IMG/VR virus record: IMGVR_UViG_3300036819_000070
Origin: a virus
Taxonomy: Duplodnaviria > Heunggongvirae > Uroviricota > Caudoviricetes
Length of the DNA: 64,000 nt
Direction: 5' to 3' (one strand)
Part shown: one piece after another, positions 3,171 to 45,092 of the stretch
Layout: the number at the start of each line of letters is the position of its first letter
Numbering within the stretch: position 1 is the stretch's first letter
The notes under the pieces: generated by a model
What the model saw: only the letters and a program-made list of their open reading frames with translations
What the model was told of the DNA's origin: nothing
Database searches by the model: none
Program-made: the position numbers and the translations under genes

Positions 3171-3219
3171 GTCCCGAGGATGGCGTGAGGCTACCGGATC
3201 GAATCCGGCCGGGATCACT
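3171..3219. promoter_or_regulatory. Conserved 5'-UTR element, copy 2
   Basis: GTCCCGAGGATGGCGTGAGGCTACCGGATCGAATCCGGCCGGGATCACT; matches 1395-1454. Confidence 0.3.
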
Positions 3220-4522: not shown

Positions 4523-5470
4523 GTGATGAGCACTGCGACCGCAGTACGTAGCAAGCGACACCGCACCACCCGACCGGCGGCCAGTACCGACCGGCCTAGG
4601 TTCGATCCGTATCAAGAGGTGACCGATCAGATCATCGCGCTGTTGGAGTCCGGTACTGCACCGTGGCACAAGCCGTGGGATGCGGCTAACGGTGGCATGC
4701 CTAGGTCATTGTCTACCGGTAAGCCGTACCGGGGTATTAACCCGTTCCTCTTGCAGATGGCGGCTATTGCGCACGGGTACGCGTCGCCATGGTGGGCGAC
4801 TTACGACAATATCGCGTCGCGTGGTGGGCAAGTACGCAAGGGTGAGAAGGGCACCATGGTTATTTTCTGGAAGCAGTACGTCCGGAAAGCTACAGAAGTC
4901 GGCGAGGACGATAGGCCAGCTTTCGTGGCGCGTGCGTTCAAAGTGTTCAATACCGATCAAGCGGATGGTTTGACGTTGCCACCCATTGCGGAGCGGCCCG
5001 TTGATTCGGTTGATCCTATCGCGGCTTGTGATGCGGCTATCGCGGGTTATCTCGCGACCGGCCCGACGGTGCACCATGGTGGTAATCGCGCCTGCTATTG
5101 GCCAGATGCGGACACTATCAACATGCCAGAGCGGGACACGTTCGACGGTTCCGAAGAGTATTACGGGACGTTGTTTCACGAAAGCGTGCACAGCACGGGG
5201 CACAAAAAGCGTTTAGCGCGGCCCGACTTGCTCAATATGCACGCGTTCGGGGACGTGAGCTATAGCAAGGAAGAATTGGTCGCTGAGTTGGGGTCAGCAT
5301 TCCTGTCCGGTCATACCGGTATCACCGTCGTTACCCTGCCAAACTCAGCGGCGTATCTGGCCTCTTGGATTAAGGTATTGCGCGGTGATCATAAACTGCT
5401 AATCCAAGCGGCAGGGCAAGCACAAAAGGCAGCGGACCTAATCCTCGGCATTACCTACGATACCGAATAG
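4523..5470 (+). CDS. ArdC-like antirestriction protein (ssDNA-binding N-domain + zincin metalloprotease)
   Basis: N-terminal PWHKPW...GINPFLL region resembles ArdC-N/DUF1738; C-terminal HESVHSTGH (HExxHxxGH) zincin motif. Confidence 0.7.
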   Translation: MMSTATAVRSKRHRTTRPAASTDRPRFDPYQEVTDQIIALLESGTAPWHKPWDAANGGMPRSLSTGKPYRGINPFLLQMAAIAHGYASPWWATYDNIASRGGQVRKGEKGTMVIFWKQYVRKATEVGEDDRPAFVARAFKVFNTDQADGLTLPPIAERPVDSVDPIAACDAAIAGYLATGPTVHHGGNRACYWPDADTINMPERDTFDGSEEYYGTLFHESVHSTGHKKRLARPDLLNMHAFGDVSYSKEELVAELGSAFLSGHTGITVVTLPNSAAYLASWIKVLRGDHKLLIQAAGQAQKAADLILGITYDTE

Positions 5471-8805: not shown

Positions 8806-9044
8806 AGCATGCTTATTGTGCGCAGGAAAAGCATGCTTATTGGTACGCAGGAAAAAAAGCATGCTTTATGTTCGCGGTGGCTTGTGCTGGCAATCGCACC
8901 ATGTGTAGCCCCGGCAAAGGTCGTGGGTGTCGGATTCACACGCGTCGCAGACGAAGTTCAGGAAAAGCATGCTTTGTTTACTCCCCTGCCGAAAAGCATG
9001 CTTATTTGGCGCAGCAAAGCATGCTTATTTTGTTTTTTGGGGTG

Positions 9045-9116
9045 CGACTCTGACGGGATTCGAACCCGCGCCTTCCACCTTGACAAGGTGGCGCTCTCCC
9101 GTTGAGCTACAGAGCC
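9045..9116 (-). tRNA. tRNA-Asp (anticodon GTC)
   Basis: Minus-strand cloverleaf: acceptor GGCTCTG/CAGAGTC, D arm GCTC-AACGGGA-GAGC, anticodon stem CCACC/GGTGG loop TTGTCAA, T arm GCGGG-TTCGAAT-CCCGT, discriminator G, no encoded CCA. Confidence 0.75.
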
Positions 9117-21664: not shown

Positions 21665-22926
21665 TTGCCGTGCCTGCCTCGCCTTGCCCCGCCATGCCTG
21701 GCGTCGCCGGGCCTGCCGTGCCGTGCAGTGCGATGCCCGGCGTTGCCGTGCCGGGCCTGCCGTGCCGTGCCAGTGCCCTGCCGCGCCGTCATGCCGCTCG
21801 GCGCCTGCCTTGACCTGCCACGCCCTGCCACGCCCCGCCGAGCCACGCCTAGCCGCGACCAGCCCTGCGATGCCTGCCCAGCCGTGCCCGGCCGTGCTGT
21901 GCGTGCCGTGCCTGCCTTGCCGTGCCATGCCCCACCGACCTGAGCCGCGCCGTGGCTGCCAAGCCGTGCCGAGCCGTTCCACGCGTTGCCGAGCTGCGCC
22001 TGCCTTGCCGTGCCGTGCCACGACCAGCCTTTTCGTGCCACGTGTTGCCGCGCCTGCCCCGCCGAGCCGCACCCAGCTGCGACAAACCGCACCCAGCCGC
22101 GCCTGCCACGCCTAGCCGTGCCGAACCCCGCCCCGCCCAGCGGTGCCTGCCCTGCCGGGCCCGGCCGTGCCTTGCCGGGACGCGACGAACCACGCCCGGC
22201 CTGCCGTGCCACACCGAGCCCTGCCGTCCGCGCCATGCCGAACCACGCCTGCCCTGCCGTGCCTAGCCGGGCCCCAGCCCTGCGATGCCCCGCCCAACCT
22301 CGCCGTGCCTGCCTTGCCGAGCCCCGCCCAGCCGCGCCACACCGGGCGCTACCTGGCCGTGCCCTGCCTGCCATGCCGTGCGTTGCCCCACCAGGCCCAG
22401 CCGCGCCGCGCCTGCCACGCCCAGCCGCGCCGCGCCTAGCCACTCGCAACCAGGCCGGTGCCGTGCCTGCCGTGCCATGCATTGCCCAGCCCTGCGACGC
22501 CTGCCAGCCGTGCCACGCCTAGCCGGACCACGCCTGGCCACGGCCACGCCTGCCACGCCACGCCCTGCCGTACGCGCCCAGCTGCGCCTAGCCGCGCCTG
22601 CCCTGCCGAGCCGAACCGTCGAAACCAAGCCGTGCCCTGCCACACCTGCCGGGCCACGCCCTGCCGGGCCATGCCCTCCCATGGCTGGCCTGCCCTGCCG
22701 AGCCGAGCGGGGCCACACCCGGCCGTGCGATGCCTGCCGCGCCGCGTCTCGCCACCGGTGCCATGCCCGTGCCGGACCTGCCGCGCCATGCCGCGCGTTG
22801 CCCTGCCGTGCGATGCCCGGCCGCGCCTGCCGTGCCCCGCCACGCCAAACCCCGCCTCGCCAAACCGCGCCCTGCCGTTCCTGGCCGTGCCTGCCACGCC
22901 ACGCCGTGCCTGGCCACACCTGCCGA
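21665..22926. repeat. 1.26-kb degenerate pentanucleotide array (GCCNN)n on + strand / (GGCAN)n on - strand, ~250 units
   Basis: GCC or TGCC recurs every 5 nt with occasional 1-nt phase slips; all six frames open (ORFs 20983..22482, 22263..22919, 21597..22115 etc. show 5-aa periodic nonsense peptides). Confidence 0.85.
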
Positions 22927-23551: not shown

Positions 23552-24199
23552 TCATTTGGTCGCGTCGGCGCGCTGCTGGTCGGTGAATACGGCTTCCTGG
23601 CCGGATGCGGCTACGGCGACGTAGGAACTCAGTGAGCTGGTCGCTGAGCGGGTACCGGAATCGGTGGCGGCGTAGGTCATTGTTTGGCCCGACCTGACCC
23701 CTAGGGACGCGCCGACCGCGATGGCGTCTTGGTTGGCGCCGAGGTACACAACCTGCCAACCGAACTCGCGTTCGTGGCGTTGCACCATCGCTTTGATCTC
23801 AGGAAAGGTGTGCTCGTGTGACGCATTTTCTTTCCCGTCCGTCATGATCGCAAGGATCACCGTGCCGGGGCGCTGGTGTTCGGGAAGCGCCGCGAGTTCC
23901 GCACCGAACTCGGCAATGGAACGGCCCATCGCGTCGAGTAGCGCGGTGCTACCGCGTGGGCTCAGCTGAAACGGTGGGATGCTCGCCGGGTCGGTGGACT
24001 CGCACACCGTCTGGTAGCCGTCGTAGTGCGGGTAGGAGTCACTATCGAACTGGGCTATCCGGATGGTGCGCCGGCCGTCGGCGTTCACCTGGTCCTTGAT
24101 GAATCCGTTGATGCCCTCCTCAGCGGCTTCACGGATCAAGTCCATGGAACCGCTACGGTCGATTAACAGCATGATCGCCGCGTAATTCGGGTCTGTCAT
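23552..24199 (-). CDS. von Willebrand factor A (vWA) domain protein
   Basis: MLLIDRSGSMD MIDAS-type motif; GGAGGGAAACAA RBS; ATGA overlap with RecT stop. Confidence 0.65.
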   Translation of the reverse strand: MTDPNYAAIMLLIDRSGSMDLIREAAEEGINGFIKDQVNADGRRTIRIAQFDSDSYPHYDGYQTVCESTDPASIPPFQLSPRGSTALLDAMGRSIAEFGAELAALPEHQRPGTVILAIMTDGKENASHEHTFPEIKAMVQRHEREFGWQVVYLGANQDAIAVGASLGVRSGQTMTYAATDSGTRSATSSLSSYVAVAASGQEAVFTDQQRADATK

Positions 24200-25329
24200 T
24201 TGTTTCCCTCCGTGGAAGCGAGGTCGGCCAGGGTGTGCGTCAAAGTGCCACCGTCTTTGCACCGTTGTAGGAAGTCGTTGATCGTGTCGACGTCGCTCGC
24301 GGTGAGCTGGTCGAATGACGTCACTGGCTCAGCGGGTGGCCGGTTAAGAATCCGGCCGGCTATGCGCAATCGCACCTCACGGTCGGATCCGTTGACTCCA
24401 CCGTCGCGCAGCAATGCGAATAAGCGGTTTGTCTGCGACTTCTCAGGGGCGGCAGGTTCGGCACCGCCGCTCTCATCGACCACGCACGCATTGACCTTGA
24501 CCTGTTCAGCTGAGGCTTTCTCGGTTGCGGCTTTGACGCGTGCGCCAGCCGAGGCGATGCGATCGAGTAGGGGCACGTCGTTGGGCCGCAGGCCCCGCGC
24601 GAGATCCCAAATCTTTTTCAGCTCGGGACGGTCGTTGCGTCCTTCGGCGTCTTTGATCAGCGCATCCCAGTCGGGTTCAGCGGGTCGTTCCCGTTCGGAT
24701 TCGATGATCGTGGGTTGTGGGTTGTTCAGGTGTTCCATTTCGTCGTCTGTGTAAATGTTGGACAGGTCTTGCGGGAACAGCCGGCGGCGAGCGAGGGCCT
24801 CAGCGCATTTCGCGAGCTGCCCGGCGGCTTTCGTCTTCCACATTTTCGTGGGTTCGCCGTCGTATTTGGTTTGGACGTATTCGCGGTAGTGCGCGATGGC
24901 ACGGACGGGGTAGGTGTGGTCTTTGCGTTTGACGGTGAATCGGGCGGCGACGGGTGGGTTGTCGTCATCGGCCCACATTTCTTTCCACACGCCGTCGGGG
25001 CCGCACCATTCAGCGGCGGGGTCGCCTTCCCCGTCGTAGCGCTTATCCCTTTCGCAGAACAGTCTGAATCCGTCGATGCCAGTCTGGATCGTCCATTTTT
25101 TTCCGGTGGGTGAGTCCCGGTCGTTGCGGGCGATGAGGTAAATCTGTCGGGCGAAGGGATCCAAACCGACGCGTTGCGCGACGTGCAAAAAGACTTGCTG
25201 GTCGCCGGGGGGTGCGTCAGCGATTCCGATCTGGTCGAGCGCGGCGCGCTGCGCTGGTGTCCAGTCGATTTGGTCACCGCGCAGCGCCAGGGTGCCGCTG
25301 GAGGTGGTGGCCAGTTCTGTTCCGGTCAC
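24196..25329 (-). CDS. recT: RecT-family ssDNA-annealing protein
   Basis: LHVAQRVGLDPFARQIYLI and following blocks resemble the RecT family; adjacent YqaJ-like exonuclease. Confidence 0.75.
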   Translation of the reverse strand: MTGTELATTSSGTLALRGDQIDWTPAQRAALDQIGIADAPPGDQQVFLHVAQRVGLDPFARQIYLIARNDRDSPTGKKWTIQTGIDGFRLFCERDKRYDGEGDPAAEWCGPDGVWKEMWADDDNPPVAARFTVKRKDHTYPVRAIAHYREYVQTKYDGEPTKMWKTKAAGQLAKCAEALARRRLFPQDLSNIYTDDEMEHLNNPQPTIIESERERPAEPDWDALIKDAEGRNDRPELKKIWDLARGLRPNDVPLLDRIASAGARVKAATEKASAEQVKVNACVVDESGGAEPAAPEKSQTNRLFALLRDGGVNGSDREVRLRIAGRILNRPPAEPVTSFDQLTASDVDTINDFLQRCKDGGTLTHTLADLASTEGNK

Positions 25330-25619
25330 GCGACACGCTCATATGACTGTGCGTGCATGTCGGCGGTCACGGGGTAGGGGTCACCGTCGGCGTCTAACGC
25401 GATGTATCCGTGCCATCCTTCGGGCACTTTGTATTCGCCTTCTTTGGTGGCCACGGTGAACGGGCCACTGACAGGCGCCATGCGGGTGGTGCCGACCTTG
25501 CGGTATTCGGCCCAGCCAACGGGGGGCAGGTTGTCTTTGTCGTAGTCGCTCACGCCTGTTCCCAACCTTTCACGATATGAATCCGGCGTGAGCTGCTGCG
25601 CCGAATGTAGGCATCCCAA
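25326..25619 (-). CDS. hypothetical protein
   Basis: 97-aa ORF between exonuclease and RecT; 5' end overlaps exonuclease 3' end by ~70 nt. Confidence 0.35.
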   Translation of the reverse strand: MGCLHSAQQLTPDSYRERLGTGVSDYDKDNLPPVGWAEYRKVGTTRMAPVSGPFTVATKEGEYKVPEGWHGYIALDADGDPYPVTADMHAQSYERVA

Positions 25620-26563
25620 ATGTCCGGGTGGTCGAACTCCAATGCTTTGTCGACTGCCGGGTTGTTGAGTTGGCTTTTGAACGTGACTACCGGGCGGGGG
25701 CCCAGTAGCAGTGCTTCGTGCTCGCCGGCCATGACCCGGAGGGCTTTGTCGATTTCAGCGGCGCGGTCCTTAGCGGCCTTCTCAGCGGCTTTCAGTTCGG
25801 CGCGTTCGATCAGCATTTGCCGTAGGTACGCGGGCCATTCCGCTTCGACGGCGGTGCCGGGTTGCGCGGTCGGCCACCGCAACGAGATCTCCTCATCGGT
25901 GATGGTGTCCAAATCCACCGGCGGTGGTGTGTCGGTGTCGATGTAGGAGTCCCACCACACGTGGGCGCGTTTCCGCATCCGGTCGATCAATGCGTCGTCG
26001 CGTTCCACCGGTCCACGGATTTGTGGTTCCTGGTCAATGGTGTAGGCCGCGAACCACACGTGGGTGCGGCCAGTGACCATGAGCTGCCATTGACCTTGGA
26101 CGTAGGCGTGGCGGGCGATGCCGCCGTGGCGCCATTCCGCGCCGACTTTCGCCCACGACCCGATGGTTTTCACCTCAAGGCAGCCCCCGTCAGCGGTCAA
26201 TCTGTCGGGGGTGGCCCGGAGGATCGGTGTTTCTTTGTGTTCGACCAGGCCGCAGCGCCGGACCACGAGCTTTGTTTGCTCGGAAAAGAACTCGACTACG
26301 TGCGGTTCCAACCAGTTGCCGCGCCGCATCGCTTCGGTTTGTTCCTGGTGTTCCGCGCGCCCCGTTTTGTCAAGCCATAGCTCGTATTCGCTGCCGTATT
26401 CCGATACCCCCATCAGGAGCGCGACGTCGGACGATCCGATTCCTTTGCGGCGTTCGTCAAGCCACTGATCGCGGGGTGCGTCAGCGCCCAGTACCAGTTG
26501 CCCGGTGGGCATTGACCACGGGTTGACTGGTTTGATTTCCGACCATGGACGGTGACCGGTCAT
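25550..26563 (-). CDS. YqaJ/lambda-Exo-like (PD-(D/E)XK) recombination exonuclease
   Basis: GIGSSDVALLMGVSEYGSEYELWLDKTG...EHKETPILRATPDRL...LEVKT typical of YqaJ viral recombinase exonucleases. Confidence 0.7.
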   Translation of the reverse strand: MTGHRPWSEIKPVNPWSMPTGQLVLGADAPRDQWLDERRKGIGSSDVALLMGVSEYGSEYELWLDKTGRAEHQEQTEAMRRGNWLEPHVVEFFSEQTKLVVRRCGLVEHKETPILRATPDRLTADGGCLEVKTIGSWAKVGAEWRHGGIARHAYVQGQWQLMVTGRTHVWFAAYTIDQEPQIRGPVERDDALIDRMRKRAHVWWDSYIDTDTPPPVDLDTITDEEISLRWPTAQPGTAVEAEWPAYLRQMLIERAELKAAEKAAKDRAAEIDKALRVMAGEHEALLLGPRPVVTFKSQLNNPAVDKALEFDHPDIWDAYIRRSSSRRIHIVKGWEQA

Positions 26564-33726: not shown

Positions 33727-33984
33727 ATGGCAGGCAGGGCGTGTTCCGGCGGGGCGAGGCGCGGCTAGGTTGGGCATGGCAGGCACGGTTCGGCACGGGC
33801 ATGGCAGGGCATGGCTCGGCAGGGCAGGCACGGTACGGCGCAGCGCGGAATGGCTAGGTCTGGCCGGGCATGGCGGGGCATGGCAGGTTCGGCGTGGCAC
33901 AGCTGGGTTCGGCTGGGCTCGGCTTGGCAGGGCAGGCCACGCACGGTATCGCTGGGCGGGGCGCGGCTCGGCTAGGCAGGCACC
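33727..33984. repeat. 0.26-kb pentanucleotide array (GGCNN)n, inverted copy of array 21665-22926
   Basis: GGCAG GGCGT...GGCAT GGCAG GGCAT... 5-nt periodic on + strand; lies between integrase terminator and start of gene 33648. Confidence 0.8.
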
Positions 33985-34036: not shown

Positions 34037-35239
34037 TCATGCAGTCCGCTTCTTTTTTTGGACACCTCTCTTAGCTGCCGCGAGAGCCACAACATTGTTG
34101 GCGGTGGCGATGGCGGACAACCCGTCAGCGATGGCCTGATCCTGTTGCTGTGCCTTGTGCTGGTAGCGCAGCGCGGCAGCGAACGTGGTGTGCCCGAGCC
34201 GGTTCATCAGATCCTTAAGCGGTGCGCCCATGGACGCGGCCAGCGTGGCGCTGGTGTGCCGTAGATCGTGGAACCGTAGGTCAGGGCGACCGGCCGCCTC
34301 GCGGGCCCGCCACCAGTGCACACGCAGCGACGACTCGCACATGTGCTTGACACCGTCGGCGCCGGGGAACAACAGGCCCTCATCACCGGGGGCGGCGTGC
34401 TCATCGATGTGCGCCACGATCGCGGGAACAACGTGCGGTGGGATCGACACGACCCGGCGGCTGCCGGCCGTTTTCGGTTCCTTGATGACCCGGCCGTCGG
34501 CGCTGCACCACACCACGCTGCGACGGATCCGCAACCAACCGCCCCGGTTGTCTTCGTCAAGCTCGCGTAGGTCAACGTCCTTACGGCGTAGCTCAGCGAG
34601 TTCACCGAACCGGGGTCCGCACCACGCGGCCAGCAACACCGCTAGCTGGTACTTACTGGGCATGGCCTCGACCATGGTCACCAGCTCGTCCACCGTGGCG
34701 GGCTCGGTGTCGATGGCGCGTTTCGCTTGACCAGCACCATGGATCCGGCACGGGTTCACTGCGATCAACTCGTCATCGACGGCAGTGTTGAGGACGGTTC
34801 TCAACAGCGCGTAGGCGTGCGCTTTGGCCGTCTTCCCCGTCTTGAGCCGGGCGTGCCAGGTGCGGACCTTCGCGGCGGTCAACTCGGGCAGCGGGGTGTC
34901 ATCGAAGCTCGGGTAAATGTGGTTGCGCAACAGCGCGGCGTACAGCTCACGGGTCAAGATCCCGAGGTCCCGTTCAGCTAGCCATGCGTCGGCGAACTCG
35001 CGCACCGTCAACGGGGTCGCCGCGTTGGGCTTCCACTTTTCCCGTGTGATCTCTGAGTGCCGCAGCGACAACCACACGTCGCCATCGGTGCGCGTCTCGA
35101 AAGTCAGGGACCGACCGGCGTTGTCCTGAGCTGAGTAGGTGCGCCCGTCAGGGCCGGTGTATCTGGCTTGGAAACGACCGGACGGCAACTTACGGACGTT
35201 GCCGAATGTCCGCTTCTCTTTGGTCGGTTTCCTGGCCAT
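34037..35239 (-). CDS. int: tyrosine integrase (site-specific recombinase)
   Basis: C-terminal HDLRHTSATLAASMGAPLKDLMNRLGHTTFAAALRYQH (R..H..R..Y box); likely start MARKPTKEKRTFGNVRKL; first 93 codons of ORF 34037..35518 are Pro/Thr-rich and overlap gene 35280..35750. Confidence 0.9.
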   Translation of the reverse strand: MARKPTKEKRTFGNVRKLPSGRFQARYTGPDGRTYSAQDNAGRSLTFETRTDGDVWLSLRHSEITREKWKPNAATPLTVREFADAWLAERDLGILTRELYAALLRNHIYPSFDDTPLPELTAAKVRTWHARLKTGKTAKAHAYALLRTVLNTAVDDELIAVNPCRIHGAGQAKRAIDTEPATVDELVTMVEAMPSKYQLAVLLAAWCGPRFGELAELRRKDVDLRELDEDNRGGWLRIRRSVVWCSADGRVIKEPKTAGSRRVVSIPPHVVPAIVAHIDEHAAPGDEGLLFPGADGVKHMCESSLRVHWWRAREAAGRPDLRFHDLRHTSATLAASMGAPLKDLMNRLGHTTFAAALRYQHKAQQQDQAIADGLSAIATANNVVALAAAKRGVQKKKRTA

Positions 35240-35279
35240 CAGCTTGTCGCCTTTCGTTCGGTCACGACGGTCGGGTAGG

Positions 35280-35750
35280 TCACGGGAGCATGCGGTCTGG
35301 GCCTTGGTAGGCCAGTGCCACGGGGTAGGTGATGGTGCGACGGTTGACGGGGTTAAGCCGCCCCGAGTCGATGATGGTGTACCCAGCGGCCCGTAGTTCG
35401 CGGTGCATGTTCGCGTCGGCGGTTGCCGGGTCGTCGTCGGCCGGGTAGCCGATGATCTCGACTTCACCGTCAATTTCCATGGTGCGGATCCGGATGCGGG
35501 CGGTGCCGTGGTCGTCAAGATCCTCAGGGTCGACTTCGGCGTAGAAAGCCGGCGCAGGATGAGTCAGGTCCCCGCTGTGATCCCGGCCGTCGTGCTGGCC
35601 GGCGATGTCCAGCGCGCTGGGCTTACCGGCGGTCTGTTCGTCGGCGCTGCGGGCCGCCACGAACTTTTCGAAGTCGCCGCAGCGGCACTCAAGGTAGAAG
35701 CCCGACGGGTGCGGGAAGACGGTCACCCGGTGCTCGATCGACTCGGTCAT
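35280..35750 (-). CDS. hypothetical protein
   Basis: 156-aa ORF immediately upstream of int in the same operon. Confidence 0.45.
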   Translation of the reverse strand: MTESIEHRVTVFPHPSGFYLECRCGDFEKFVAARSADEQTAGKPSALDIAGQHDGRDHSGDLTHPAPAFYAEVDPEDLDDHGTARIRIRTMEIDGEVEIIGYPADDDPATADANMHRELRAAGYTIIDSGRLNPVNRRTITYPVALAYQGPDRMLP

Positions 35751-39153: not shown

Positions 39154-39735
39154 ATGATCTTTTTCGTCGGTCATGGTCGCATGGTGGTCACGGGGTGGAC
39201 CCTGGGAAGATTCTGGGAACTCGGCACCGTAGGGCCGCGACACGCAGCCCGTGTGCTATGGCGTGCGGTAGCACAGTGTTACGGTGCGCGCGTGATCAGC
39301 CACCGGGCCAAGACGGTGGTCGTCACCGTCCACGTGATCACGTCGGTGGCCATGCTGGTGGTGACCGCCGCGCTGGTCGCGATCCAACTCCAAGGCTCCA
39401 AACCAGATCAGATTTGGAACCTCGCTACGCGGGTGTTGACACCCACTGCGGGGGTCGCGTTCGCCAGCGGGCTTGTGTTGGCAGTGGGGGGGCCGTGGGG
39501 TTTGTTCCGCTTCCGGTGGGTGATCGCGAAGCTAGAGATCTCGGCGTTGCTGGCCGGCGTTGGGCTGGTCAACCTCGCGGTGCGGTTGGATCCGTTGACG
39601 GTGCTGGTCGCGCGGTCCTGTGCGCTGGTCGCGCTGGTCGCCCTGGTGGCAGTGTCGGTGGCTAAGCCTTGGGGGCGCACTCCCCGGCATCGCATTCATT
39701 GGACACGTCGTAGGGCCGTTAGCTCAATTCGGTAG
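39154..39735 (+). CDS. membrane protein
   Basis: 193 aa with 4-5 hydrophobic helices; 3' end overlaps the tRNA-Lys 5' end. Confidence 0.5.
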   Translation: MIFFVGHGRMVVTGWTLGRFWELGTVGPRHAARVLWRAVAQCYGARVISHRAKTVVVTVHVITSVAMLVVTAALVAIQLQGSKPDQIWNLATRVLTPTAGVAFASGLVLAVGGPWGLFRFRWVIAKLEISALLAGVGLVNLAVRLDPLTVLVARSCALVALVALVAVSVAKPWGRTPRHRIHWTRRRAVSSIR

Positions 39736-39788
39736 AGCAGCAGACTTTTAATCTGCGGGTTCTGGGTTCGATTCCCAGGCGGCCCACC
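39713..39788 (+). tRNA. tRNA-Lys (anticodon TTT)
   Basis: GGGCCGT-TA-GCTC-AATTCGGTA-GAGC-A-GCAGA-CTTTTAA-TCTGC-GGGTT-CTGGG-TTCGATT-CCCAG-GCGGCCC-A-CC. Confidence 0.8.
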
Positions 39789-40174
39789 GTCCAGGTATGC
39801 CCCTAAGAAGTCGGTGCGCTTCGTCGGCGTCGGCGCGAGCTAGGGCGCTGTCAGCGCGAGCTATAACGAGATCCGTTCGTGCGCGACGGAGTTGCGTGCG
39901 GAGTTCACTGATGCCCGTTTCAAGCTCGGCGAGCCGGTTCAGTGTGTTCTCGTCAGTAGTCACCGACGCCACCGCATATTCCGGTGCGTGCGAGGACGGA
40001 GCCGCTCGACGTCGTAGCCGGCCTGGGCCTCCTCGGCTAACTGGTCTATGAGTGGTTCCGTCAGTTCCACGCCGCCCGAGGTGGGGCGCCGGCGAAAGCG
40101 AAGGAGGGCGACTGCCAGCCCCGTGCCCACGAAGAGGCCCGCGACGACCACCACCACCGACGCAAGAATTATCA

Positions 40175-41605
40175 TCACCATGAGGTCAGCTCCTCGAAAT
40201 TGATACGGAATGGCCGGGTGTCCTCGATCGGCCGCCAGTGGCCTTTCCCGCATGGTTCGTACCGCTGTTTCCAGTACGCCGGCCCGCGTTGCACGATTTC
40301 GCGTAGCGCCCAGTCGAGGTCTATGAGTTTCTTGGGGGTCACGTCGAGTCCGAATGAGAGGCGTACCCCGCCGGCTAAGTCACCACCGTCGTGCGCCTGA
40401 CCGATTTGTTTGGCCTGTTGGGGGCTGTAATCCAGCAAATGGGCCACGAGAATGTGGGCGCAGAAACATCCGCCTCGGTTTGCGGTGGCGAAGTGGCCGG
40501 CGAGGACTGCGGATACCAGGCCCCAGTCGAAGCCCTCAATGTTGAAGGTGATCACGCCGACTTTGGGATGGTTCCGATCCCACATGTGGTAAATCTTGAT
40601 GCCGGGAATGTTGTCGATGAGGTTGTAGGCCAGGTCCAGTAAAAGGGATTCCCTGGCAGCGATCCGGTGGGTGTCAGCGCGCCGCAGGGCGGCCATAGCT
40701 ACGGCAGTGGCTAGTGCACCGACCACGTTGGGGCTGCCGGGTTCGTTGAGGGCTTCAACGTCGGTGGTCCATACGATTTCGCGGTCTGCGTAGATGAAGT
40801 CAACGATGCCGCCACCGGTGATCAGCGGCCGGATACCTTCGAGGAATTTGCGGGGGCAGGCGAGGACACCGCAGCTGTATTGGGCGCCGAACTTGTGGCC
40901 CGACGCGACGCCGAACTTGGTGCGGAGCTTGCGCATGCTCACCGGGTGGTGCGCGGCGAGTTGCGCGAAGTCGCCCAGCAGGGGCGTGCCGTGTTTGTCT
41001 TCGGTGATCGCCGCGATGGCCGCGAGGTCGGGCATCTCACCTGTGACGTTGCTGGCGCCGGTGACACCGACCAGATCAGCGGGACACCGGGTGAGTTCCG
41101 CGTCGATCATCGCGAGCAACTCATCGTGGGTTTCGGGTACCGGCAAGATCGTGAGATCGATGTACTCGGCGACCTCGAACGGCACGATCATCGCGTTGTG
41201 TTCCATACCAGTGATCAGGACCCGCGCACGCCGCTTAGCCGCTTTCGCCCGCTCGTTGAGCACGTGGGCGATGATGTTCAGGCCACCGGTGCTGTTGTTG
41301 GTGAACACGATCGCGGTGTCGTCGTCGGCGTCGAGGAACCGGCGGGCAACTCGCCGGGCGTGTGCGTAGTGGGCGGTCGCTTCCCGTGAGTTGGCACCGG
41401 GACCGCGTTTGATAGCACACGCGGTGCGGTTGAAATCGCGGACGAAGTTTTCGACCACCACCAGTGCGGAAGCACTCGCGGCGTGATCGCAGTTGTTTTC
41501 GATCCGCCAACGGCCATCGACGGTGGGTACGACTACGTCTTGACTGGCCAGCTCTAATCCGGGGTTCATGGCGTGACGTGGTGTCCGCTCGGCGGTGGTA
41601 GTCAA
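40175..41605 (-). CDS. class V aminotransferase (cysteine-desulfurase-like PLP enzyme)
   Basis: 476 aa; ASGHKFGAQYSCGVL resembles the SGHK(x)GP.G.G PLP-lysine motif of the IscS/SufS/CsdA family. Confidence 0.75.
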   Translation of the reverse strand: MTTTAERTPRHAMNPGLELASQDVVVPTVDGRWRIENNCDHAASASALVVVENFVRDFNRTACAIKRGPGANSREATAHYAHARRVARRFLDADDDTAIVFTNNSTGGLNIIAHVLNERAKAAKRRARVLITGMEHNAMIVPFEVAEYIDLTILPVPETHDELLAMIDAELTRCPADLVGVTGASNVTGEMPDLAAIAAITEDKHGTPLLGDFAQLAAHHPVSMRKLRTKFGVASGHKFGAQYSCGVLACPRKFLEGIRPLITGGGIVDFIYADREIVWTTDVEALNEPGSPNVVGALATAVAMAALRRADTHRIAARESLLLDLAYNLIDNIPGIKIYHMWDRNHPKVGVITFNIEGFDWGLVSAVLAGHFATANRGGCFCAHILVAHLLDYSPQQAKQIGQAHDGGDLAGGVRLSFGLDVTPKKLIDLDWALREIVQRGPAYWKQRYEPCGKGHWRPIEDTRPFRINFEELTSW

Positions 41606-41747
41606 CGGGTACCCCTCCCGACGGCGATGTCAGCGGATGGCACACCGTAGTGGATCGTGTGCATCTGCGTGACATCGGGTGTGCTAACACGTGTGCTACT
41701 ACAGTGCGGCGGCCGGGCCGGGTGGTCTAAGGTGGCCCAGCACCCGA

Positions 41748-41821
41748 AGCGGGGTGGAGCAGCTCGGTAGCTCGTGAGCCTCATAAGCTCAAGGTCGCGG
41801 GTTCGAATCCCGTCCCCGCCA
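41748..41821 (+). tRNA. tRNA-Met (anticodon CAT) with initiator-like features
   Basis: AGCGGGG-TG-GAGC-AGCTCGGTA-GCTC-G-TGAGC-CTCATAA-GCTCA-AGGTC-GCGGG-TTCGAAT-CCCGT-CCCCGCC-A; A1xC72 mismatch and A11:T24 pair; no CCA. Confidence 0.7.
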
Positions 41822-42310
41822 CGTGACCGCGCGAACGTGGGCTTGGATCGCACGGATCGCGTGGATAGCCGTAGGCATCTACACGATCCACGTCCTATGG
41901 ATCCTCTGGTCTCTCTGGGCGTAGCTGCGGTACGGTGTCCTCGGTGGTGGTCCGCGTCGCGGCATGGTGACGCTGCTCTTCCTTGCTAGGGTTCGGCAGT
42001 CGATCAGCCCACCGGACCACCACCGCCAAATGATCTCTCTGAGATACTCCCGCCATGATCGCCGTTGACTGTTGCGATGCGGGGTATAACTCCACTGACG
42101 TTGTTGACCTATACGTGTGGCATGAGGACGACTGCCCACGCCTGAACGAGCTACTCGGTGATTTCGCAGGAGAGTGGATTCCGGCAGTCAACGATGAACA
42201 ACCGTGAGCTGAGTCGGGGATTCTGGCGGGCCATGCTCGCTGGGTGCGTCGCTGACTTCACCGCCGGTATGGTCGCCGCTCACATCCTCGGGTTGCGGGC
42301 AGCGCTGGTG

Positions 42311-42895
42311 CTACTGGTGGGCATCCTCGCTGGGGCCGTCGCCATGCTGGTCGCCGCGTGGATCTACGACCGGTGCGTGCCCCGCTGGCCACGTAGCTAG
42401 GGCACGCCAGTCCGTTGCCCATTGGAAGGCGATGCCGGCGGCGCGAGCGCACTTCTCGTCTTCGGGTCGGTCACCGACCATCAGGGCCAGCTCGGTCGGG
42501 TAGGTCTCATCGGGAAACCGCAGGGCGAGATCTTCGGTGCCGTTGACAACCAATCCGGGTAGTGGTTTGCGGCACAGGCAGTGCCGCATCGCGGGGTTGG
42601 GTGCGTTGGGGTGATGGGGGCAGACCCGGATGTCATCGAACAGGGCCCAGCTCAGGCCGTTGGTGCGCCGCATCGCGGCGGTGCACGTGCCGGCGTCGAG
42701 GTGCCCGAGCGCGATACCGCCCTGGTTGGACACGCCGATGATCCGGCCCCCGTCAGTTTTCCAGCGACGCATCAGCTGGACCGCTTCGGGGAAGATCACG
42801 ACGTCGTTTGGGCCGTTGACGAAATGTCCGAGTTCGTTTCTGCCGTGGCGTACGGTGCCGTCGATGTCGAGGTAAAGAACGGGAACCATCATCAT
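42311..42895 (-). CDS. HAD-IIIA phosphatase, GmhB/histidinol-phosphatase-like (possible polynucleotide 3'-phosphatase)
   Basis: Start MMMVPVLYLDIDGTV (DxDGT), GVSNQ, and Zn-loop CPHHPNAPNPAMRHCLCRKPLPG; upstream 66 codons of ORF 42311..43093 are basic and low-complexity. Confidence 0.65.
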   Translation of the reverse strand: MMMVPVLYLDIDGTVRHGRNELGHFVNGPNDVVIFPEAVQLMRRWKTDGGRIIGVSNQGGIALGHLDAGTCTAAMRRTNGLSWALFDDIRVCPHHPNAPNPAMRHCLCRKPLPGLVVNGTEDLALRFPDETYPTELALMVGDRPEDEKCARAAGIAFQWATDWRALATWPAGHAPVVDPRGDQHGDGPSEDAHQ

Positions 42896-43440
42896 CGCTG
42901 CGTGATGTTGGCGATGTAGTCGATACCGAGGTAGTAGCCGAAGACCAGCGCGGTGATGAGTGTTAGGGCCAGCGCGATCCCGAGTGTCCAACGCAAGGGT
43001 CAGTCCTTCCGGGGTTTGTAGTTGGGGCATTCGGTGTTGTCGAGTCGGGCGAGGATCTTGCCGCAGCTGGTGCAGTACCGTTCGTGCCGGCAAAGGTATC
43101 GCCAGTCACCGAAGACGCGCCAGGACCAGTCGAGCCATCCGCATACCGGCCGCCAGGGCGGCACTGATGAGCGTGCGCCGGGCTGGTGGCGGGGGTACCG
43201 CTGGAGGCTTTCGACGTAGCTATTGAGCCGGATGGCCGGTTGGTGTTCGACACCGGTTTTGCCTCGGCACCACTTCTTGGTTGACCGTCGGCGGTGGTGG
43301 CGTACGGGTTGTTCGTCGTCGGGCCGGGGGGCGCGTAATTCGCTGACGCGTGGTTCGTCATCCCATCCCCAACTCACGGCCTTATGGTAGCTAATTCGGT
43401 GCCGACCGTTCCGTCTATAGGATTACACACCTAGCGTGCA

Positions 43441-44247
43441 TTGGTGTGGATTCATATGTGCGGATTCAGTCGGCTACAAGGCCCTAATTACTCTCCCGAC
43501 CTTGTGACCCTCCTATGTCAAATCATCGCCGTTGAGCCGACCGTCAAGAGCACTACCTACAGTGCCGTCACGAAGTTGCACCACGACACTCAACGAGCCC
43601 AGAAGGACGGGCCTTTCGCCGGCCTCAGCCGCGTCTACACGCCGTTGGACAACGAAGGTGAGCAGCTCCCCGGTGAGTCAACCCGAGTGCAGTGGCGCAC
43701 CGATGACATCCTGCGGCAGATCGCTAACGCATCCACTCGGTTGTTCGACCTGGTTGCCACGAAAGACCACGCCAACTGCGATGCCAAAGCCGATGTGAAG
43801 GTCGGCGAGCTGGTGCTGTTGAAAAACGTACCGGTGACGTACCTGCTTTTTCTCGAGAAACAACTCAAGGATCTGCGGACCATCATTTCGAAGTTGCCGA
43901 CGTTGGACTTGGCCGAAGAGTGGCATTACGACGCGGCGCGCGGATGCTGGGCCACTGCGCCGGTGGAAACGACGCGCACGAAAAAGAACCCCAAGAACCA
44001 CGTACTAGCACCAGCCACCGACAAACACCCCGCGCAAGTCCACATGTACACCGTGGATGAGGTCGTTGGTACGTGGAAGACGATCAAGTTCTCGGGTGCG
44101 CTGCCGGCGGATCGGGTGGCCGTGCTGCTGGAGCGAGTAGAGACTTTGCAGCGGGCCGTGGCGTTCGCTCGCGAGCAAGCCAACACCCGCAAGGTGGAAG
44201 ACCAACACGTCGGCGATGCCCTGTTCGGGTACCTGCTGGCCGTGTAA
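43441..44247 (+). CDS. hypothetical protein
   Basis: 268-aa ORF, no recognisable motif. Confidence 0.45.
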   Translation: MVWIHMCGFSRLQGPNYSPDLVTLLCQIIAVEPTVKSTTYSAVTKLHHDTQRAQKDGPFAGLSRVYTPLDNEGEQLPGESTRVQWRTDDILRQIANASTRLFDLVATKDHANCDAKADVKVGELVLLKNVPVTYLLFLEKQLKDLRTIISKLPTLDLAEEWHYDAARGCWATAPVETTRTKKNPKNHVLAPATDKHPAQVHMYTVDEVVGTWKTIKFSGALPADRVAVLLERVETLQRAVAFAREQANTRKVEDQHVGDALFGYLLAV

Positions 44248-44253
44248 AAGGAT

Positions 44254-44392
44254 TGCGTCGTAGTCCAGCGGTCTAAGACACCGTGTAGCGAGGGGATCGA
44301 GGCCCCATCTCACCGTTAGCGCTAGCCAAGGTGAGACCCGCAAGGGAATGGCACCCGCCACGGTAACCCCGGTTCGAATCCGGGCGACGCAG
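44254..44392 (+). ncRNA. Aberrant 139-nt tRNA-like element (type-II D arm, intact T arm and acceptor, ~70-nt insert in anticodon arm)
   Basis: Acceptor TGCGTCG/CGACGCA (7/7), TA, D arm GTC-CAGCGGTCTAA-GAC, stem CCGTG...CACGG enclosing insert with GGGG-ATCGAGG-CCCC and CCC-GCAA-GGG hairpins, T arm CCCGG-TTCGAAT-CCGGG, discriminator G. Confidence 0.35.
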
Positions 44393-44694
44393 CGTGCTGA
44401 CCACAACTGACTATCTTCGGGCGATCGAGCTGTGCCGCGCGGCAGTGGACGCGCATTACTCAGACGATGGTGGTGCGACTGTCGCGGGGAGTTTCCTAGG
44501 CCAGCTTCGCGCGCTGCTCACGGAGCCGGGGGGTAGCGGTCCGGAGGGCACTGCCCTGGCCCCCCGGACCTAAATCGACCTGTATGAGATTCACAGTCTC
44601 AGGGTCTAATCCACCCAATTGCGGGTGCCAACGACGTTTAAGGACGCAGTCAGTGTGAAGTGGCTGTGTCTTGCCGCTAGACCACGGGCGCACG

Positions 44695-44722
44695 CGGAGC
44701 GCCCGGCGGGATTCGAACCCGC
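44695..44722 (-). other. Isolated tRNA 3'-half-like element (T arm + acceptor 3' strand), minus strand
   Basis: CGCGGG-TTCGAAT-CCCGC-CGGGCGC-T; no matching 5' acceptor GCGCCCG within 100 nt. Confidence 0.3.
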
Positions 44723-45092
44723 GTTCCCAACCGTTCTTCGCCGCTATCCATTTGATTTGGCACCGGATGGCAATACTCAAACTGGAGCGAGAGTCTCAAG
44801 CGTGATGCGTGTGGGACCGTTGCCTCTACCGGTTGGGCTACTCGGGCTCGTGTGCCCGAGGGAGGGGTCGAACCTCCACTGATGGTCCTACTACTTGAAT
44901 CTGATTCGTCAGTTTCAGTTTGCGCTCCTGCGTTAGCCACCGTACCCGACAGGGCGACACGGTCCACGGGCTGTGGTCATCCCGTGCGGCGAGTGGGGCA
45001 ACCGCAAGCCCCCAAAGCGTGAAGGTGCACAGGAAACATGAATTGACGGGGTACGGTGTTGGGCGGTCCGACGCCTAGGAAGGTCAAACACC

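Follow-up and report, generated by a model that had tools for sequence, protein, structure and literature searches.

The 64,000-nucleotide (nt) viral stretch analyzed here (IMG/VR record IMGVR_UViG_3300036819_000070; hereafter referred to as the window) carries, at positions 44254–44392 of the plus strand, a 139-nt tRNA-like element that is a real, conserved phage-borne RNA gene, far beyond anything expected by chance. We think it probable that this element is the gene for a stable non-decoding tRNA mimic of a temperate actinophage or prophage, derived from a tRNA-Glu/Asp-type gene and serving as a decoy or a scaffold. Direct reading of the sequence gives a class I tRNA cloverleaf (tRNA positions 1–73; 44254..44392) in every part except the anticodon loop. 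The 5' strand of the acceptor stem, TGCGTCG (44254..44260), pairs at all seven positions with CGACGCA (44385–44391), and the 3' strand ends with the discriminator G at 44392 (44385..44392), the CCA not being encoded. U8 and A9 (44261–62) precede a Glu/Asp-type D arm (GTCC-AGCGGTCTA-AGAC, 44263..44279) with a 3-bp stem and a C13-A22 mismatch. The “anticodon” stem is formed by CCGTG (44281..44285) and CACGG (44359–44363), and is followed by a 4-nt variable region, TAAC (44364..44367), and by the T arm CCCGG-TTCGAAT-CCGGG (44368..44384). The features of a canonical tRNA (cloverleaf, U8, G18 and G19, and a T loop of the UUCRANN type) are therefore all present, except the 7-nt anticodon loop with U33 on a 5-bp stem, the stem here enclosing 73 nt (41–77 nt in the relatives described below). 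Upstream, the gene at 43441..44247 on the same strand encodes a protein of the DUF7873 family (Pfam PF25283, E = 5e-100), the stop codon of which ends 6 nt 5' of the element.

The insert replacing the anticodon loop (44286..44358) begins with a 2-nt bulge, UA (44286–87), on the 5' side, before a stem extension in which GCG (44288..44290) pairs with CGC (44356..44358) in the minimum free energy fold. It then contains hairpin A (GGGG-ATCGAGG-CCCC, 44292..44306), with a T-loop-like 7-nt loop, hairpin B (TCTCACC, 15 nt, GGTGAGA; 44308..44336), which is variable and missing from short members of the family, the GNRA-capped hairpin C (CCC-GCAA-GGG, 44337..44346), and a D-loop-like single-stranded motif, AATGGCACC (44347..44355), with the family consensus RRNGGCNC (the tail). 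A preliminary description, made from the letters of this stretch, had noted a 139-nt element with acceptor, D and T arms and an insertion of about 70 nt, the 7/7 acceptor pairing, the canonical T arm, the CCGTG/CACGG stem around a structured insert, the GNRA-capped hairpin and the proximity to the stop codon of the upstream gene; all these points were confirmed. Folding of the single sequence gave the helices of the element, with an energy only modestly better than that of shuffled sequences (z = −2.2), and the case for the element therefore rests on comparison with its relatives.

We identified 26 relatives in viral and metagenomic contigs, with total lengths of 108–147 nt and inserts of 41–77 nt (hereafter referred to, with the element itself, as long elements). 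Near-identical elements (L081/82, L085/86, L098 and L122) were reached through contigs encoding close relatives of the upstream protein. The distant members L087, L088, L090, L101–L105, L109, L111, L116, L117 and L119 were recruited by scanning metagenome and viral contigs for the D-arm sequence as a pattern; these scans, which recruited the first half of the family, fix the D arm by construction. A second recruitment was based exclusively on motifs from the inner part of the insert, with no use of the D arm. It found several known members again and added L211, L214–L218, L220, L221 and L225. Every true match to the inner motifs lay in a tRNA-Glu-type body with the D arm GUCUAGCGGCCCAGGAC, indicating that the insert and the body form one unit and that the insert is no mobile piece landing in tRNAs of various kinds. 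The relatives include elements on IMG/VR viral contigs; contigs of this kind may include prophage flanks, and the flanks available at some of the relatives' loci were short.

The homologous loci were aligned for the covariation analysis that the preliminary description had suggested, and the pairing proved to be conserved. In an independent alignment of 16 members (MAFFT/RNAalifold), 90.2% of the cells were paired and 21 of the 28 pairs showed compensatory changes, a level reached by none of 500 shuffles, with slid controls at 37–48%. The corresponding values for 27 members were 92.4% of cells and 23 of 28 pairs changed on both sides (0/500 shuffles; slid controls 35–54%), this larger alignment (A4) having been fitted to the covariance model R1 described below, with the effect that its pair counts look somewhat too good. 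Covariation was seen among the 27 members in the acceptor, the “anticodon” stem, hairpin A and the T arm. Compensatory changes were observed for every pair of the acceptor in the family alignments, and all five pairs of the “anticodon” stem were kept through changes on both sides, with 97.8% of cells paired in the 27 members, the set to which the next values also refer. The T arm was paired in 99.3% of cells (four of five pairs compensatory), and one stem pair of hairpin A was GC in 19 members, CG in seven and UA in one. The stem extension was weaker, at 71% of cells, with compensatory changes in three of three pairs.

The single-stranded parts were no less constant. The loop of hairpin A was WUCGARN and the variable region NRAC (4 nt) in 27/27 members, the outer T loop was UUCRAAU in 25/27, and the tail motif RRNGGCNC was found in almost all, most commonly as GAAUGGCCC. 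Inserts folded singly repeatedly gave the same plan, consisting of the extension, hairpin A, hairpin B, hairpin C and the tail, with zero to two variable hairpins. The arms of hairpin B differed between relatives (GAGCTG/CAGCTC, GAGG/CCTC and CCCGG/CCGGG), and those of hairpin C changed in step (GCC/GGC, GCCC/GGGC and CCGC/GCGG). Two further candidate features were dropped: an 8-bp acceptor with a −1:73 pair, present in about half of the members and thus close to chance frequency, and a pseudoknot between the loop of hairpin B and the tail, seen in L081 and the window and not conserved.

R1, which was built from the relatives, gave the element the highest score in the family (133 bits, E ~1e-36) and no other such match in the window, in agreement with the earlier view that the structure is not accidental. 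Scores ranged from 61 to 133 bits in the family, and ordinary tRNAs reached 70 bits at most and were mostly below 55. The element has all the features by which we define the family: a Glu/Asp-type body, a 5-bp stem over a WUCGARN hairpin, an RRNGGCNC tail and a 4-nt variable region. ARAGORN in default mode did not call it, and called a normal 73-nt tRNA when the insert was swapped for any 7 nt. The element was not reported by Rfam 15 at gathering thresholds, the local region 44150–44500 gave nothing at E ≤ 10, RF00005 did not match the element even at E ≤ 10, and the relative L103 had no match at either the gathering threshold or E ≤ 10. The long-element family is thus absent from Rfam 15 and missed by ARAGORN with default settings, and a literature search yielded no description of such an RNA. 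The preliminary suggestion of a new tRNA-derived non-coding RNA or tRNA-like structure is borne out by this covarying family. BLAST searches of the locus and the element against cultured phages gave no match, and no member from a cultured phage was found.

Some loci carried related or adjacent forms. A short form with the same acceptor, D and T arms lies about 5 nt after the DUF7873 gene in L094–L097 (2847–2928 in L094); it has a 15-nt loop, CAGCAUGGGGCUUGG, on a 5-bp stem, and scored 77 bits with R1. L083 (4802–4952) contains a degenerate relative (43.6 bits), which retains the acceptor, the T arm, hairpin C and the tail but has unrelated sequence in place of the D arm. Directly after the long element in L109, ARAGORN called a tRNA at 4902–4981 with a 4-base anticodon (ggtg) and no assigned type, perhaps a frameshift-type tRNA or a further unusual tRNA-like gene.

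The body of the element can be assigned with some precision. Its 17-nt D arm is identical to that of a phage tRNA-Asp(gtc) called by ARAGORN in L110 and near-identical to that of the phage tRNA-Glu(ttc) in L120/L121, and the closest bodies among the 278 tRNAs in the examined loci were those of Asp, Asn, Gln, Arg and Glu. The D arm of the independently recruited members is what we take to be the classic bacterial tRNA-Glu D arm, and the 4-nt variable region is presumably Glu-like. Phage tRNA-Glu and tRNA-Asp genes share the D arm, T arm and style of anticodon stem with the element, but differ in having a 7-nt anticodon loop, in being recognized by both ARAGORN and Rfam, and in scoring 45–70 bits with R1, as against 61–133 bits for the family. 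The body is therefore best described as Glu/Asp-type class I, the class being indicated by the 4-nt variable region, and its sequence points to descent from a tRNA-Glu or tRNA-Asp gene. The D loop had originally been described as being of the Ser/Tyr type, an assignment that does not stand. The earlier view that this is not a type II tRNA does stand: a type II tRNA or tRNA-Sec would have a long variable arm, whereas here 27/27 members have a variable region of 4 nt and the extra RNA is enclosed by the anticodon stem.

An intron-containing or otherwise interrupted tRNA gene, from which removal of the insert would give a decoding tRNA, is a reading suggested by an insert at the position of the anticodon loop, where known intron-containing tRNA genes, of the bacterial group I or the archaeal bulge-helix-bulge type, also have their extra sequence. 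ARAGORN in intron mode did “find” a tRNA in every member, and gave tRNA-Ala(agc) with a 68-nt intron at 37/38 for the window. However, the isotype was Ala, Arg, Gly, Lys, Ser or Glu, depending on the member, the intron site shifted, and the near-identical L122 and L085 were read as Arg(gcg). Homologues did not retain the same anticodon or isotype on removal of the insert, and no conserved U33 or anticodon was found after the 5-bp stem across the relatives. Group I introns have a catalytic core, P1–P9, and are usually longer than 200 nt, whereas the insert is 73 nt long (41–77 nt in the relatives) and matched no Rfam intron family at E ≤ 10; the early remark that it was too short for such an intron was correct. 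The archaeal bulge-helix-bulge junction has two 3-nt bulges separated by a 4-bp helix; on inspection, the only bulge visible in the element was the 2-nt UA on the 5' side, with none on the 3' side. Finally, the insert has conserved motifs and covarying helices of its own, including the T-loop-like hairpin. The intron reading gives incoherent anticodons across the relatives, and we therefore consider it very improbable that this is an intron-containing tRNA. The preliminary idea of an intron-containing or disrupted tRNA-Ser fails in addition on the class I Glu/Asp body, and the Rfam and ARAGORN intron searches recommended with it yielded no clean annotation as an intron-containing tRNA.

Hairpin A itself might be read as an anticodon arm. 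Its loop, AUCGAGG, has seven nucleotides, with a U at position 2, a central CGA and a purine after it, a pattern kept in 27/27 members, and an aberrant tRNA using this arm would decode UCG (Ser). The same loop, WUCGARN in the family, agrees with the T-loop consensus UUCRANN no less well than with an anticodon loop, so that of the preliminary claims for this segment the hairpin is upheld and the CGA anticodon is not. SerRS requires a long variable arm, which the class I Glu/Asp-type body lacks. The hairpin lies beyond a stem that is 2–4 bp longer than usual and bulged, with zero to two further hairpins adjoining it, and would on this analysis be mismatched to the ribosomal A site, a geometry that is probably incompatible with normal decoding. 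We regard the use of hairpin A for decoding as barely credible. From the conserved structure and the loss of a coherent anticodon, we conclude that the RNA does not decode.

We also considered that the locus might matter at the level of DNA, as a phage attachment site, a tRNA pseudogene in decay or what is left of an integration event in a tRNA gene. tRNA genes are frequent integration targets of temperate phages, and the window encodes an integrase (34037–35518). This gene is, however, 9 kb from the element, no second copy of the 3' part of the element is present in the window, and several contigs show the element within a block of syntenic genes. The maintenance of helices by compensatory changes indicates selection on RNA structure, with pairing conserved and not the DNA letters themselves. 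This explanation appears the least probable of all, and the attachment site or primer mimic envisaged in the preliminary description finds no backing in these results.

Among known systems, YrlA (RF02553) is a bacterial and phage non-decoding RNA with a tRNA-like module composed of a T arm, an acceptor-like stem and a D arm (PMC4201824). This module is circularly permuted, with the acceptor closed by a loop and the RNA ending in the Ro60-binding stem (PMC4201824), and genes for tRNAs or for RNA repair are often located close to that of YrlA (Chen et al. 2014, PMC4201824). The element resembles YrlA in being tRNA-like and non-decoding, and has a YrlA-like tandem RNA as a neighbor in the window, about 220 nt distant. 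It differs in topology, its acceptor ends being open and its anticodon end closed, whereas the neighboring RNA (44610–44935, minus strand) does have the permuted arrangement. RF02553 did not match 44150–44500 at E ≤ 10, and no TROVE/Ro60 gene was found in the window, where the Pfam-scanned open reading frames (ORFs), including every listed ORF of at least 430 aa, contained no TROVE domain.

As in the tRNA-like domain of tmRNA, the acceptor and T arm are kept in the element and another RNA domain replaces the anticodon arm. tmRNA is about 350 nt long and is processed like a tRNA, with pseudoknots, a tag ORF, a degenerate D arm and the alanine identity pair G3-U70. The element, by contrast, is 139 nt long, with an intact D arm and C-G at tRNA positions 3:70, and neither ARAGORN nor Rfam called a tmRNA; the family has no conserved ORF, and the inserts, down to 41 nt in length, show no conservation of a coding sequence. 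The element would work most like the YrlA-type mimics and the tRNA-like domain of tmRNA, yet belongs to neither group, as topology, model match, partner gene, G3-U70 and ORF all differ. The T4 small stable RNAs rnaC and rnaD, annotated in a phage tRNA cluster, provide a further comparison. rnaC (species 1 RNA; L229, NC_000866, 70908–71046) is exactly 139 nt long, like the element; its T arm and 3' end are tRNA-like, and extra hairpins take the place of the remaining tRNA parts. It has no homology to the element in sequence or model (its 3' part scores 21 bits with R1, the level of an ordinary tRNA) and no clear D arm, and is an analogue rather than a homologue. We know of no function established for rnaD or, after decades, for species 1 RNA.

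DUF7873 is a compact single-domain family of about 245 aa, for which 6149 homologues were found; clustering at 50% identity gave 2568 clusters. No informative fusions were revealed when 1.8 billion proteins were searched with a profile, NCBIfam, PADLOC and PHROGs gave no match, and the family was not mentioned in any paper found by literature search. It is distributed in Actinomycetota and a few other phyla, and in phages of Gordonia, Arthrobacter, Rhodococcus, cyanobacteria, Ralstonia, Rhizobium, Vibrio and Klebsiella, the gene lying within or beside a tRNA gene array in the three actinophages examined (Gordonia Phendrix, Gordonia Fryberger and Arthrobacter Racecar). No conserved protein neighbor was found in 80 genome loci, the sole conserved neighbor being a non-coding RNA of about 350 nt, directly 3' and on the same strand. 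This RNA consists of two circularly permuted tRNA-like modules, each with a T arm, a closed 7-bp acceptor hairpin, UA and a D arm. A strict detector identified at least one permuted module in 77 of the 80 genome loci (exactly two in 70) and in 72 of 77 viral loci, the tandem RNA loci analyzed being the window, L001–L080, L091, L092 and L129–L208. Matches to the Rfam YrlA model were below threshold (34.1 and 17.9 bits in L004). No Ro60/TROVE gene was found near the tandem RNA in the DUF7873 loci, and the pairing of DUF7873 with a tandem YrlA-like RNA in the absence of Ro60 is unreported in the literature searched.

In the window, the tandem RNA is on the minus strand (~44610..44935, with approximate ends), convergent with the element. 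Its T arms, at 44877–61 and 44722–06, each precede a closed 7-bp acceptor hairpin and a D arm, and it scored 24.0 and 21.2 bits with the Rfam YrlA model (gathering score 69). The same convergent layout of long element and tandem RNA was observed in L081, L085 and L098, with the degenerate form in L083 and the short form in L094; the tandem RNA alone was found in L099. ARAGORN called the first permuted module as odd tRNAs of 86–91 nt (Leu(gag), Phe(gaa), Ala(agc) or undetermined), about 30–130 nt after DUF7873, in L002, L011, L036–L038, L040, L044, L052, L056, L057, L059, L060, L063, L066 and L074. Such calls are a likely source of wrong tRNA annotations in Streptomyces genomes.

The association of DUF7873 with tRNA-like RNAs raises the question of whether the element is a dedicated RNA cofactor of the DUF7873 protein, as a third type of tRNA-like partner in a Ro60-independent particle resembling those of Y RNAs. 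Almost every DUF7873 gene is followed by a tRNA-like RNA, as described above, and the spacing from its stop codon is 6 nt for the element and 5 nt for the short form in L094. The long element lies no more than about 0.9 kb downstream of DUF7873 in L081, L085, L098 and L122, with one small ORF between the two in the first three of these loci. Most long-element loci, however, have no DUF7873 gene in the flanks examined; only two of the 13 first-found viral contigs with a long element were among the top 80 of the 198 DUF7873-encoding viral contigs, and no long element was detected within 1.5 kb of the other viral DUF7873 genes. DUF7873 is thus not an obligatory partner, the long element being tied to it only in this clade, and a dedicated cofactor seems unlikely to us.

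The short distance to the stop codon, in both the window and L094–L097, would also suit a cis-acting processing signal, in which the tRNA-like structure recruits RNase P and RNase Z to define and stabilize the 3' end of the DUF7873 mRNA and the released RNA has no function. Most members are nevertheless stand-alone, adjoining neither DUF7873 nor any conserved ORF, and the conserved inner domain would be needless in a mere cleavage signal, so that we hold this to be improbable. The wider family shares no protein neighbor, many carriers of a long element have no ordinary tRNA gene nearby, and DUF7873 is mostly absent; the element is therefore an autonomous small RNA gene, located in this clade in an island of DUF7873 and tRNA-like genes.

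For the non-decoding tRNA mimic that we favor, the following course of events may be proposed. The element would be transcribed with DUF7873 or just after it, excised by RNase P and 3' processing, and supplied with CCA. The features needed for an L shape and for tRNA maturation (acceptor stem, U8, a D loop with GG, the 4-nt variable region and the T loop) are all kept, and the RNA would accumulate as a stable L-shaped molecule. A T-loop-like hairpin and a D-loop-like strand (A-R-Y-G-G) are the two halves of a tRNA elbow, and we therefore propose that the loop of hairpin A and the RRNGGCNC strand plausibly form a second elbow-like knot, giving a “double elbow”. Unreadable on the ribosome, the RNA would act in trans as a protein-binding tRNA look-alike, either as a decoy or competitor for a host factor recognizing tRNA-Glu-like bodies or as a scaffold in the manner of Y RNAs, the candidate partners here being the DUF7873 protein and the neighboring tandem YrlA-like RNA.

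Several observations, in addition to the fitting of the larger alignment to its own model, weigh against this interpretation. In L081, L085 and L122, which are the closest relatives, the acceptor is reduced to 6 bp plus a U-U mismatch. In some members, the CCCC of the tail could pair instead with the 5' GGGG of hairpin A, and the proposed second elbow is a hypothesis drawn from the resemblance of a loop to a T loop and of a strand to one containing GG. DUF7873 was present at only four of the 26 other long-element loci, and 21 of the remaining 22 distinct contexts lacked it in the flanks examined; no protein neighbor was conserved across the loci of the wider long-element family, and the fold of DUF7873 yielded no clue to function.

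A broader model may be tentatively put forward, in which actinophages and their hosts possess a two-part layer of tRNA mimics. The first part would consist of double-elbow tRNA-Glu mimics titrating or redirecting a host factor, such as a tRNA-targeting immune or toxin protein, GluRS or glutamyl-tRNA reductase, and the second of a widespread, Ro60-independent particle of DUF7873 and the tandem permuted RNA, the two being linked physically, and perhaps functionally, in this phage clade. We would not at present call this model probable. Phage tRNA genes are now viewed as weapons against host defenses that cleave tRNAs; to our knowledge, non-decoding tRNA look-alikes in phages are almost unstudied. 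The covarying family described here, with at least 27 members missed by standard tRNA finders and Rfam, supplies a search model and a design in which a tRNA-Glu body appears to carry a second T-loop/GG knot in place of the anticodon. The genes of the large DUF7873 family, which number in the thousands in actinobacteria and phages, are nearly always paired with a tandem YrlA-like RNA and have no Ro60 nearby; this makes both the role of tRNA-like Y RNAs without Ro60 and the nature of DUF7873 open to experiment. On the practical side, parts of the tandem RNAs are mis-annotated by ARAGORN as tRNAs of 86–91 nt.

The window, with a GC content of about 62%, has the appearance of a temperate actinophage or prophage and encodes, in addition to the integrase, RecT (24196–25329), a YqaJ exonuclease (25550–26563), an ATP-dependent DNA ligase, an endolysin-like protein and three tRNA genes. 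Upstream of DUF7873, the region 39713–41822 contains tRNA-Lys(ttt) and tRNA-Met(cat), together with a SufS/CsdA-type cysteine desulfurase (40175–41605, minus strand), and an ORF for a GmhB-like HAD phosphatase (42311–43093, minus strand) lies between these genes and DUF7873. The layout of tRNA-Lys, tRNA-Met and cysteine desulfurase is syntenic in L081, L085 and L122 and suggests an island devoted to tRNA modification or tRNA biology. Between the two convergent RNA genes, a strong GC-rich hairpin (CCGGGGGG...CCCCCCGG, 44526..44567, with no strand assigned) is possibly a bidirectional terminator without a U tract; a scan for promoter and terminator consensus sequences, which is unsuited to actinobacteria and needs a U tract for terminators, found nothing.

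Repeats were observed elsewhere in the window. Tracts with a 5-nt period, GCCNN in one stretch and GGCNN in the other, occupy 21666–22924 (~1.25 kb) and 33758–33954 (~0.2 kb); this period, not being a multiple of three, is unusual for coding DNA. The motif AAAGCATGCTT, with the palindromic core GCATGC, occurs in at least eight copies between 8804 and 11227, around the tRNA-Asp gene at 9044–9116, and may constitute an operator or promoter-associated set. An intergenic repeat pair at 1415–1454 and 3180–3219, with 88% identity, contains a T-loop-like hairpin of its own, CCGG-ATCGAAT-CCGG.

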